Part shown: positions 19,693 through 20,416 of the stretch, piece after piece
Layout: each line of letters opens with the position of its first letter
Position numbering within the stretch: position 1 is the stretch's first letter
Assembly (NCBI GenBank): GCA_037446475.1
Contig: JBBIIM010000010.1
Coordinates: forward strand, 17,551-37,966
Length of the DNA: 20,416 bases
Direction: 5' to 3'
Origin: Crocinitomicaceae bacterium
GTDB taxonomy: Bacteria; Bacteroidota; Bacteroidia; Flavobacteriales_D; Crocinitomicaceae
The notes under the pieces: model-generated
The model's database searches: none
The model's input: the letters and a program-made list of their open reading frames with translations, nothing else
Told to the model about the DNA's origin: nothing
Program-made: the position numbers and the translations under genes

Positions 19693-19880
19693 AACCAATT
19701 AATTTGAGTGTGAATTTAGGTATTTTAGCGGATGACCTATTCACAAACTCAAAATAAATTGAAAAGTCAATTTTTTAGAATAGAAAAGGGATTCAAGGTT
19801 TTGTTTTTACCTAAAGACAGCCGACAGCAACTCAAATTTGGAAGAAAAGCACAAAATCGGGCATTTTTTTTCTGGCTTGG

Positions 19881-19909
19881 TTGTGGCAATCGAAAAACAT
19901 CTATCTTTG
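19881..19909 (+). promoter_or_regulatory. Bacteroidota sigma-A-type promoter for tRNA-Phe (-33 TTG ... -7 TAtcTTTG)
   Basis: ttgtgg at 19881-19886 and tatctttg at 19902-19909, with the tRNA 5' end at 19926. The spacing and motifs match the Bacteroidota consensus. Confidence 0.45.
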
Positions 19910-19925
19910 CAGCCACCAAAACGGA

Positions 19926-19998
19926 GGTGATGTAGCTCAGTTGGTAGAGCAAAGGACTGAAAATCCTTGTGTCGGCGGTTCGATTCCGTCCATCACCA
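19926..19998 (+). tRNA. tRNA-Phe (anticodon GAA), no encoded CCA
   Basis: Manual fold. Acceptor GGTGATG/CATCACC (7 bp). D-stem GCTC/GAGC with loop AGTTGGTA. Anticodon stem AAGGA/TCCTT with loop CTGAAAA (anticodon GAA). Variable loop GTGTC. T-stem GGCGG/CCGTC with loop TTCGATT. Discriminator A. Confidence 0.9.
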
Positions 19999-20033
19999 CT
20001 GAAAATCAAGGGAGGCTTAGGTCTCCCTTTTTT
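19979..20033 (+). repeat. Direct repeat copy 1 (tRNA-Phe positions 52-73 plus 33 bp of 3' flank including the terminator hairpin)
   Basis: The 55-bp string ttcgattccgtccatcaccactgaaaatcaagggaggcttaggtctccctttttt recurs exactly at 20362-20416. Confidence 0.9.
20005..20033 (+). terminator. Rho-independent terminator after tRNA-Phe
   Basis: agggaggcttaggtctccctttttt has a 7-bp stem with a GC-rich base and a T6 tail. An identical copy lies at 20388-20416. Confidence 0.6.
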
Positions 20034-20038
20034 GTTGT

Positions 20039-20338
20039 ATGGAACATTTCGTTTACATCCTACAAAGTCAAGTCAACGGCGCTTTTTACAAGGGCTGCAC
20101 GAATGACTTGTATCGCAGACTCCGCGAACATAATAACCGTGAGGAAAAAAGCACTGCCCGTTATGCGCCGTGGAATTTGGTGTGGAAATGCGTAAAACCG
20201 AATAAAACAGAGGCTTTAGTTCTTGAAAAAAAACTCAAAAATCTATCCCGTGAAAGATTGACCCAATTCATCGATAAATATCCCGTAGAAGCTAGTGTCG
20301 GCGGACCTGACGTGACGGGTTACCGTCAGTCAGGATGA
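20039..20338 (+). CDS. Stand-alone GIY-YIG nuclease family protein (99 aa)
   Basis: N-terminus FVYILQSQVNGAFYKGCTNDLYRRLREHN is the GIY-YIG core (GIY ... YxG ... R ... H/N). A downstream conserved Glu (EALVLEKKL) fits the catalytic Glu. No DNA-binding extension. The last 15 codons and the stop lie in a tRNA-3'-half-like sequence. Confidence 0.75.
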   Translation: MEHFVYILQSQVNGAFYKGCTNDLYRRLREHNNREEKSTARYAPWNLVWKCVKPNKTEALVLEKKLKNLSRERLTQFIDKYPVEASVGGPDVTGYRQSG

Positions 20339-20361
20339 TGACCAGCGCTGCTGCGTCATCA

Positions 20362-20416
20362 TTCGATTCCGTCCATCACCACTGAAAATCAAGGGAGGCT
20401 TAGGTCTCCCTTTTTT
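20362..20416 (+). repeat. Direct repeat copy 2 (identical 55 bp; runs to the window edge and may extend further)
   Basis: Exact match to 19979-20033. It is preceded at 20295-20304 by gtgtcggcgg, which equals tRNA positions 44-53, separated from it by a 57-nt two-hairpin insert. Confidence 0.9.

Follow-up and report, generated by a model that had tools for sequence, protein, structure and literature searches.

We analysed a stretch of 20,416 nucleotides (the window) from a Crocinitomicaceae bacterium (GenBank assembly GCA_037446475.1, contig JBBIIM010000010.1, positions 17,551 to 37,966 of the forward strand), in which a small gene encoding a GIY-YIG nuclease domain follows a tRNA-Phe gene and runs into a pair of hairpins embedded in a partial copy of that tRNA. 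The hairpin pair is here termed the module M, its two hairpins H1 and H2, and the tRNA-derived pieces to its left and right A' and B; coordinates are window positions unless preceded by the number of another locus or contig (L).

The tRNA-Phe(GAA) gene (19926..19999, + strand; detected by ARAGORN and by Rfam RF00005 with 75.3 bits) is intact and is the functional copy kept beside the cassette. Its 3' part opens the first copy of a direct repeat (19979..20033, +), which comprises tRNA positions 54-73, an 8-nt trailer and an intrinsic terminator whose stem (20008-20029, +) was recovered by a terminator scan and is followed by a T-run. The open reading frame (ORF) of the nuclease (20039..20338, +; 99 aa) starts with an ATG 5 nt past this T-run and ends in ...EASVGGPDVTGYRQSG, its TGA stop (20336-20338) lying within the 5' strand of H2. 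Inside its last 44 nt is A' (CTAGTGTCGGCGG; 20292..20304, +), a copy of tRNA positions 41-53, i.e. the variable loop and the T-stem 5' strand: the segment GTGTCGGCGG (20295-20304) is identical to 19969-19978, and the match widens to 13 nt (against 19966-19978) with one mismatch. The module, a dyad-symmetric insert of 57 nt (20305..20361; like its two hairpins entered without a strand), separates tRNA position 53 from position 54. H1 (20306..20334) has the outer stem CCTGAC/GTCAGG, a bulged G at 20312, a variable inner stem TGACGG/CCGTCA and a GTTA loop; H2 (20335..20362) is an inverted repeat with the arms ATGATGAC/GTCATCAT at 20335-20342 and 20355-20362 and a 12-nt loop that contributes four further inner pairs to the fold. 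At 20362 the tRNA sequence resumes with TTCGATTCCGTCCATCACCA, which begins the second copy of the direct repeat, B (20362..20416, +), made of the T-loop, the T-stem 3' strand, the acceptor 3' strand, the trailer and the terminator, and cut by the window end. All the coordinates that a sequence-only reading of this DNA had given for the tRNA fragment, the 57-nt insert, its two hairpins and the TGA in H2 hold. The exact repeat is longer than that reading stated: 19979-20033 and 20362-20416 are identical over 55 nt, through the terminator to the window end, at a spacing of 383 bp. The terminator of this second copy lies at 20391-20416; in the window H2 precedes the T-loop copy and not a T-run, and it does not have the form of an intrinsic terminator, a GC-rich hairpin with an immediate T-run.

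The protein matches the GIY-YIG family (Pfam PF01541) with 61.5 bits against a cut-off of 22.6 over residues 3-72. Its residues Y6, Y17, R27, E63 and N68, corresponding to the two tyrosines of the GIY and YIG motifs and to the Arg, Glu and Asn of the family, which are invariant or at least 90% conserved in our alignments A1 and A2, are by analogy the putative catalytic residues. Profile comparisons against the PDB recovered 1zg2 (1.1e-10), 1ywl (2.9e-08) and SLX1 (1e-4), while Foldseek gave a probability of 1.0 for 1zg2, 6seh, 4xm5, 7cq2 and 7wme and a far weaker match, with an E-value of about 0.5, for I-TevI. In the AlphaFold2 model residues 1-80 form the domain, with a predicted local distance difference test score (pLDDT) above 90; the tail, residues 81-99, is encoded by the tRNA fragment together with H1 and is modelled without secondary structure at a pLDDT of 61-65. 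No further Pfam domain, including RING, was detected in the 99 residues, and the separate DNA-binding domain of the classical GIY-YIG homing endonucleases is absent; the intron endonuclease family model TIGR01453 scores 23.2 bits, below its cut-off of 56.05. The protein matched nothing in PHROGs and no PADLOC defence family at E-values up to 0.01, and no database record of the exact 99-aa protein was found. On these sequence and fold comparisons it is an intact putative nuclease of the structure-specific UPF0213/SLX1 lineage.

Fold and covariation of the hairpin pair

The segment 20291-20416 folds as RNA with a z-score of -6.6, none of 200 shuffled sequences being equally stable, which confirms that both hairpins fold beyond the expectation from shuffling. 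In the minimum-energy RNA fold the copied T-stem encloses the two hairpins to give a three-way junction. As single-stranded DNA, the insert reaches -22.4 kcal/mol on the + strand (z = -7.2) and -21.5 kcal/mol on the - strand (z = -7.1). We compared the module across two collections of related loci. The genome set, from a profile-guided scan with one genome per species, consists of 78 loci chosen through the protein; the metagenome set, from contigs scanned for the H1/H2 junction, comprises 117 contigs with 122 modules. A covariance model built from a seed alignment (A3) of 29 sequences from homologous loci has a single match in the window (20297-20382, 78.4 bits, E = 7.5e-16) and 102 matches across the genome loci, with M right after the ORF in nearly all of the 78.

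The three-helix structure of A3 is paired in 98.8% of cells, with changes on both sides in 16 of its 24 pairs; its covariation score of 0.464 compares with 0.139 in shuffled alignments (reached in none of 500), and controls in which the 3' partner was slid by 1-3 columns are only 33-47% paired. RNAalifold, run unguided, returns the same structure, and the independent metagenome modules are 96.3% paired. The inner stem of H1 covaries freely among the homologues (columns 18-23 with 37-42). In H2 the window has GATGAC/GTCATC where the family consensus is GCTGAC/GTCAGC, a compensatory C>A and G>T change; this window-like variant is absent among the metagenome matches. The consensus of the hairpin pair can be written cCCTGACG-(variable helix)-GTCAGGATGCTGACc...gcGTCAGCA. 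Its invariant columns include GACG in H1 and CGTC in H2, such that H1 presents on its top strand the motif that H2 presents on its bottom strand; in L064, H1 approximates the reverse complement of the consensus H2. Folds, covariation, invariant columns and the covariance-model match thus delimit the same module, and the lack of conservation that would have counted against the hairpins is not what the homologous cassettes show. Because they are conserved and covary across these cassettes, we conclude on comparative grounds that the hairpins are a conserved functional element and not an incidental scar.

An alternative cross-pairing, of the H1 5' strand with the H2 3' strand and of the H1 3' strand with the H2 5' strand into a four-way junction, was rejected: only the invariant GACG/CGTC and GTC/GAC cores fit it, and at variable positions the H1 and H2 pairings hold in 97.6-100% of cases against 95.4% and 77.6% for the alternative. 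The inner helix of H1 (GACGG/CCGTC; 20314-20318 with 20323-20327) shares the 5-mer CCGTC with the T-stem 3' strand (20369-20373), and the H1 inner helix of L012 likewise matches its own T-stem; those of L001, L030 and L048 do not, and the variable helix is accordingly not a copy or guide of the local T-stem in general. The commonest H2 loop is CGAAGC (36 of 172 parsed), and the complements of the common H2 loops read C-TTCG-G, from which both strands would form unusually stable mini-hairpins.

The sequence-only reading had taken the C-terminal tail of the nuclease to be encoded by a built-in tRNA-like element, with incidental overlap as the outcome that would speak against it. The latter is what the homologues favour. 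Among 63 homologous ORFs with a parsed module, 21 stop before H1 (13 of them more than 13 nt upstream and 8 within the tRNA-derived 13 nt), 24 inside H1 and 18 between the end of H1 and the end of H2, and the ORF family ranges in length from 82 to 105 aa. The tail VGGPDVAPVRQSGC looks conserved in the tRNA-Phe lineage but follows the nucleotide constraint, with compensatory changes in the H1 inner helix altering the peptide from VTGYRQSG in the window to VAPVRQSGC in relatives. A TGA is present within both CCTGAC and GCTGAC. Given the variable stop sites, a peptide that changes with the compensation and a tail modelled as disordered, the coding overlap looks incidental, with the ORF reading into A' and M until the module supplies a stop.

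Distribution, target sites and arrays

The 78 genome loci are titled Bacteroidota except for one metagenome-assembled genome (MAG) labelled Chlorobiota (L043). Of the 63 loci whose ORF could be parsed, 53 have a same-strand tRNA that ends no more than 200 nt upstream, at a median gap of about 38 nt; another 5 are at contig edges. The closest homologues are at tRNA-Phe and the other genome loci at tRNA-Gly, Asp, Leu, Ser, Met, Val, Pro, Glu and Lys; in all, at least 15 isotypes are represented, with Thr, Arg, Ala and Asn among them. The 3' part of the same tRNA is repeated just past the ORF in most loci, and the tRNA pieces around M correspond in every case to the local tRNA, whatever its isotype. 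Each unit holds a terminator, the GIY-YIG gene and M in about 370-430 bp. In at least 8 loci two or three such units form tandem arrays with a period of about 370-430 bp, and the proteins within one array are 92-100% identical. Outside the tRNA-Phe clade, which itself includes both of the T-loop arrangements described below, the nearest protein relatives (60-68% identity) are often found at a different isotype. Units may occupy several tRNA genes of one genome, as in Draconibacterium sediminis (L032, L073 and L075) and in one MAG (L024 and L044). A 2-kb Logan contig from the organism of the window (L079), found via a neighbouring gene, stops exactly at the tRNA-Phe 3' end (19999), i.e. at the repeat. 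Evidently the repeat breaks assemblies, and either a single unit or an array may continue beyond the window end.

Three classes of module site can be distinguished in the tRNA. The commonest, as in the window, is the 5' edge of the T-loop (53/54). The second, displaced by 6 nt to the 3' edge of the T-loop (59-60/61), is frequent at tRNA-Phe of Cyclobacteriaceae and also occurs at Asp, Met and Val; here the T-stem 5' strand is often decayed. The third is the D-loop, at or near 19/20 to 20/21, with one lineage at 26/27. In these last cases ORF-less modules sit in a decayed, interrupted copy that has the native 5' flank and lies upstream of the intact tRNA (L064:1200-1300 in locus coordinates; L090:5240-5420, L196:2630-2830 and L101:8220-8500 in module-oriented coordinates, which are reverse-complemented for loci matched on the - strand). 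A mirror arrangement is seen in L040:2790-3392, where the order is 5' flank and tRNA-Ser 1-53, M, T-loop, ORF, the repeated 5' flank and an intact tRNA-Ser. At the tRNA sites M thus lies inside a truncated copy of the target, with an intact copy alongside each time, and the same layout recurs at non-tRNA sites in L088 and L132. The left flank of M usually ends in G, and the right flank starts with TT in 81 of 101 parsed cases. The two flanks are unequally preserved: mismatches to the tRNA amount to 3.9% per site in B (over 16 nt) and to 31% in A' (over 13 nt), which is conserved only over the 6-7 nt adjoining M.

Of the 122 metagenome modules, 37 have a GIY-YIG ORF directly upstream, 64 are off the contig edges and have none, and 21 are too near an edge to be assigned. 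The ORF-less units are about 100 bp long and can directly follow a tRNA; L167, for instance, reads tRNA-Val 1-76, positions 45-53, M, positions 54-76. They too form arrays, such as the three 97-bp units after tRNA-Arg in L166 and similar ones in L156 and L145. Because recognisable remnants of the ORF are kept in some of them (L102, L127), the ORF-less units appear to be deletion products of full cassettes. Modules that are decayed or have lost a part occur in L049, L022 and L085. Within 460 kb of genome loci modules were found only beside cassettes, and the 20-kb window holds a single one.

Several variants of these arrangements were observed. In about 19 contigs (L083, L099, L105, L106, L111, L126, L128, L133, L134, L137, L139, L143, L147, L150, L157, L159, L189, L190 and L193) the module occupies a non-tRNA site class, gCCAGt-M-TTTGGnGCCAGGATTTG; an 11-nt direct repeat surrounds the module in this class (gCCAGt-M-TTTGGnGCCAGG), usually just past the T-run of a terminator. 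The reverse complement of its right flank resembles a T-loop and T-stem strand, and no tRNA is called there. In L024 (2380-2520 and 2810-2950) the hairpin pair is tandemly doubled (H1-H2-H1-H2) in two units of a three-unit array. In L006:3262-3340 and L010:3262-3337 a T-run directly follows H2 without the tRNA 3' piece, and there H2 probably doubles as the terminator hairpin. Two ORF-less tRNA-Leu units (L080:3790-4000 and L094:925-1110, module-oriented) have the T-stem halves GCCGG/CCGGC where the intact tRNA has GTGGG/CCCAC, differing from it while remaining complementary; either the pairing across M is selected or the unit derives from another tRNA-Leu gene.

Proposed role of the module

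With moderate confidence, we favour the reading that M acts in cis, at the level of DNA, for a selfish family of GIY-YIG cassettes that depend on homology and reside at tRNA genes. Since M lies within a truncated copy of its target with an intact copy alongside, the tRNA pieces around it are therefore to be understood as target-derived homology and not as the parts of a split gene. The module itself is best read as marking one end of the cassette, namely its junction with the occupied tRNA gene.

The first alternative to be weighed is that A'-M-B acts as RNA: a structured 3' untranslated region or trailer, with a T-arm-like three-way junction and an acceptor 3' strand, serving the stability or processing of the mRNA and of the tRNA read-through transcript, or acting as an RNA feature that the protein or tRNA enzymes recognise. 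We consider it unlikely, albeit with several observations to its credit. The RNA fold is strong and its structure covaries; M always points the same way as the tRNA and the ORF and lies upstream of an intrinsic terminator; the T-stem that closes the junction is kept in the 53/54 class (helix 1, 90% paired, with compensatory changes), even in L080 and L094, where it differs from the neighbouring tRNA; and GNRA-like H2 loops are common. Further, prokaryotic Slx1-like proteins are fused or linked to methyltransferases, one of them read as a TrmH ortholog, a hint of RNA metabolism (PMC1564403).

The details of the pairing, on the other hand, have a DNA-like signature. Helices of functional RNAs as a rule accommodate G:U much more readily than A:C. 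In H1 and H2, G:T and A:C mispairs number 14 and 14 in the genome set and 9 and 3 in the metagenome set, in total 23 and 17 among about 3200 Watson-Crick pairs, small counts that give no excess of wobble pairs. The invariant GACG stands on opposite strands of H1 and H2, a dyad symmetry that would be meaningful for a dimer on DNA and is meaningless for RNA. Both strands fold equally well. M is also found outside tRNAs, in front of promoter-proximal tRNA 5' ends and within dead gene fragments, for instance the D-loops of defunct tRNA copies. In the 59-60/61 class the T-stem 5' strand decays. We hence weigh the DNA reading higher. The same points bear on the earlier suggestion of a transcribed tRNA 3' half with an intron-like insert, which is not favoured: tRNA positions 1-40 are absent, the mispairs and the symmetry are as just described, and M is found without the ORF, in arrays, in D-loops and outside tRNAs. 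Processing of the RNase P or RNase Z type, raised in the same context, finds no substrate here, the element lacking the acceptor 5' strand. The idea of a recognition handle for the nuclease itself may well be right, at the level of DNA rather than of RNA.

RNA candidates were also sought individually. ARAGORN and Rfam call only the gene at 19926-19999, and the element, comprising tRNA 41-73 split by 57 nt, was rejected as a second tRNA gene or tRNA-like RNA. A tRNA intron was likewise rejected: the upstream exon would be only 13 nt, there is no Rfam intron or ribozyme match at E-values up to 10, and the junctions are flush helices and not the 3-nt bulges of a bulge-helix-bulge motif. A permissive search of 19700-20416 against Rfam 15 returned only the tRNA and chance matches, with no family for the element; the best non-tRNA hit was toga_FSE, at 24.1 bits against a required 40. 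By eye, and as a lead only, no match to the consensus of the hammerhead, twister, pistol, hatchet or hepatitis delta virus-like cores was apparent, and CCUGAC pairs fully with GUCAGG as a plain helix.

It is somewhat more doubtful still that M is a miniature insertion element in its own right, mobilised by a different enzyme of the host or of an element, with the GIY-YIG gene a frequent cargo or neighbour whose product does not act on M. This would sit well with the fact that over half of the metagenome modules are without the ORF, with the existence of ORF-less arrays and with the non-tRNA sites of L128 and L132, where direct repeats of 11-13 nt resemble target duplications. Against it, M follows the ORF at a fixed distance and orientation in nearly every locus of the genome set, chosen as that was through the protein; the ORF remnants mark ORF-less copies as cassette-derived; and among the loci inspected neither another recurrent enzyme gene near M nor other cargo genes between tRNA and M were seen.

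A further possibility, which we regard as improbable, is survivorship: M, with or without the ORF, would insert in tRNA loops generally and survive only where it hits one member of a pre-existing tandem tRNA duplication, the hit copy then decaying. Some A' pieces are indeed nearly full-length tRNA 5' parts (L191, L122), tandem tRNA genes are frequent there (L023, L032, L073), and the interrupted copy may have a T-arm unlike that of its intact neighbour, as in the two tRNA-Leu units. Yet A' is short in the great majority of cases, in L167 no spacer separates the CCA end of the first copy from the second, which begins at position 45, arrays of identical units need unit-wise amplification, and the layout is the same at the non-tRNA site L088. 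Finally, that the hairpins are functionless debris of recombination between tRNA copies, as the sequence-only reading had allowed, applies to the flanking tRNA fragments and duplicated terminators, which do attest to past recombination here, and is refuted for the hairpins themselves, conserved as M is in sequence and structure across Bacteroidota families and at least 15 isotypes, with invariant motifs and compensatory changes.

Returning to the selfish cassette, we infer that the nuclease acts on M, and the following scheme suggests where it may cut and how the unit may be copied; our confidence in any specific copying pathway is much lower than in the general reading. The unit would spread and amplify by homology-dependent copying through tRNA sequence, either by homing-type break repair or by a Campbell-type crossover within B. 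The trigger would be a break made by the nuclease, either at M or beside it, or else at the corresponding loop edge of a tRNA gene that carries no unit, and M, extruded as hairpins or as a three-way junction, would be the structure recognised by the SLX1-like enzyme. Insertion at the edges of cloverleaf loops and the resemblance to SLX1 suggest that a structure is read rather than a long sequence, be it the extruded module or folded tRNA-gene DNA. For a target consisting of the parts A and B, the downstream layout would be A-B'-(terminator, ORF)-A'-M-B and the mirror layout A-M-B'-(spacer or ORF)-A'-B. By one route, a unit with A'-M-B' may recombine with the target by a single crossover on either side of M; by another, a broken target may be repaired from an occupied donor, with the new strand re-annealing within B. 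Under either route B would stay identical to the tRNA, A' could decay, the intact tRNA would survive, and repeated out-of-register rounds of cutting and repair would give tandem arrays. That B is kept while A' decays fits the need for B as a homology arm. Internal deletions would yield ORF-less units dependent on a nuclease made elsewhere.

Several considerations weigh against this reading. The nuclease activity, the cutting and the mobility of the cassette are predictions, and the catalytic domain of 82-99 aa has no obvious sequence-reading domain. A nuclease that cuts the loops of tRNA genes should also target the adjacent intact tRNA, and the model does not account for the match of A' to a new target following a jump. 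No pair of empty and filled sites from one species is present among the recovered loci. In all cases seen M keeps one orientation with respect to the tRNA, and its position upstream of the terminator implies that it is transcribed; about half of the H2 loops are of the form C-GNA-G or C-GNRA-G, stable in RNA as well as in DNA; and in the 53/54 class the T-stem stays paired across M, which homology alone does not require.

Going a step further, we tentatively propose that M and its 82-105-aa SLX1-like protein constitute a new kind of mobile element, in which the nuclease would confer mobility by working on a dyad hairpin pair or three-way junction, with insertion at tRNA loop edges, the intact target being left or regenerated, and MITE (miniature inverted-repeat transposable element)-like ORF-less units mobilised in trans. 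If the general cassette reading is right, an entire family of tiny selfish units, common both among Bacteroidota genomes and on the scanned metagenome contigs, would have been overlooked, probably because annotation covers only the ORF, as a "GIY-YIG nuclease family protein", and leaves out the hairpins. It would tie a bacterial SLX1/UPF0213-type nuclease, open to direct biochemical tests, to a DNA (or RNA) structure that is precisely defined and simple to synthesise and which under the mobile-element reading would be the first defined substrate for bacterial UPF0213 proteins. It would also represent a way of occupying essential tRNA genes without destroying them, and account for assembly breaks and tandem repeats beside tRNA genes in these genomes. 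The cassette family is apparently undescribed: full-text literature searches, whose coverage is incomplete such that a prior description is possible, returned no account of the module or of a link between tRNA genes and UPF0213 genes.

Relation to known systems and the surroundings of the locus

A close parallel in genomic setting is SegB of the phages T4 and T6, which cuts within tRNA-containing sequence and is co-inherited with its flanks by recombinational repair (PMC2330249); it also drives tandem segmental amplification of a unit of tRNA and segB via short homologies or microhomology (PMC13096335). Both are small GIY-YIG genes among tRNA genes, and the arrays described here look like the same kind of product. 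However, SegB is phage-borne and belongs to the homing endonuclease branch, whereas the present protein is chromosomal, only 82-105 aa long, without a PHROGs match and nearer to UPF0213/SLX1 than to I-TevI. The Seg and I-TevI enzymes carry a C-terminal DNA-binding domain. As far as we found, neither a conserved hairpin-pair module nor ORF-less derivatives have been reported for SegB. A phage origin of the cassette was considered and rejected: a collection of viral contigs contained no match to the module pattern, and the protein, as noted above, matched neither PHROGs nor PADLOC.

By sequence and fold the best matches are the SLX1 and UPF0213 (YhbQ-type) proteins (1zg2, 1ywl, 4xlg, 6seh and 7cq2). 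To our knowledge, no function has been established for the bacterial UPF0213 proteins. SLX1 is described as cutting branched DNA near the branch point (PMC6902002), an activity to which the hairpin pair or three-way junction would be suited as a substrate. Unlike eukaryotic SLX1, the protein lacks the C-terminal RING domain and the SLX4 partner. A survey of the GIY-YIG superfamily from 2006 mentions only methyltransferase fusions or operons (PMC1564403), and we found no report linking UPF0213 to tRNA genes or to a defined DNA module.

The direct repeats of the tRNA 3' segment (55 nt here, and general across the loci), with the tRNA left intact, recall integrase-borne islands and prophages. Such islands, as reportedly set out by Williams in Nucleic Acids Research in 2002, insert in the 3' part of tRNA genes, often in the T-loop, and the element supplies a replacement 3' end, which results in direct repeats. 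In contrast to these, the present unit measures about 380 bp and not kilobases, and has neither within it nor in its neighbours a tyrosine or serine recombinase; likewise, no integrase or transposase was found among the genes neighbouring the cassette. The conserved hairpin pair exactly at the junction and the mirror and D-loop arrangements are further differences.

The REP/REPIN-RAYT systems, the ends of IS200/IS605 elements and the attC sites of integrons are short imperfect palindromes in which the structure is conserved and the inner sequence variable, and their non-autonomous copies outnumber the enzyme gene; integrons, moreover, form cassette arrays with one ORF and one hairpin site each. 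M resembles them in combining a conserved structure with a variable inner sequence and in its surplus of non-autonomous copies over the enzyme gene, and the cassette resembles the integron in having one ORF and one hairpin site per unit. The enzymes of these hairpin elements are HUH Y1 transposases or a tyrosine recombinase, whereas the only protein family associated with M is GIY-YIG, and the copies of M are tied to partial tRNA duplications and not dispersed.

Lastly, in collaborative homing, which Bonocora and Shub as well as Zeng et al. are said to have described in 2009, a free-standing endonuclease gene lies beside an intron that splits its target. Here too the nuclease gene adjoins an insertion placed exactly at a defined position within a conserved target, and the insertion would protect the interrupted copy from cleavage. 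The difference is that M has no sign of splicing and that the interrupted copy lacks most of the tRNA, the function being kept by the adjacent intact copy. Across these comparisons the element behaves most like a free-standing homing-endonuclease cassette, for which the minimal SLX1-like enzyme, the dedicated dyad hairpin module and the MITE-like ORF-less derivatives would be unusual.

As to the surroundings, the genes neighbouring the cassette are housekeeping genes that encode Band 7, DUF1579, CoA-transferase and CorA proteins. A 10-mer of the anticodon loop, ACTGAAAATC (19956-19965), recurs right after both tRNA 3' ends (19998-20007 and 20381-20390); this could be chance or the remnant of an older, longer tRNA-derived piece. 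In the tRNA-Val loci of Fluviicola (L047, L048, L050, L051, L061 and L070), which we compared by synteny with regard to the native terminator, the upstream flanks are syntenic (76-86% identity) and the DNA past the module differs or is shifted by about 0.5-1 kb, such that the 3' side of the tRNA is a variable region that extends beyond the cassette.

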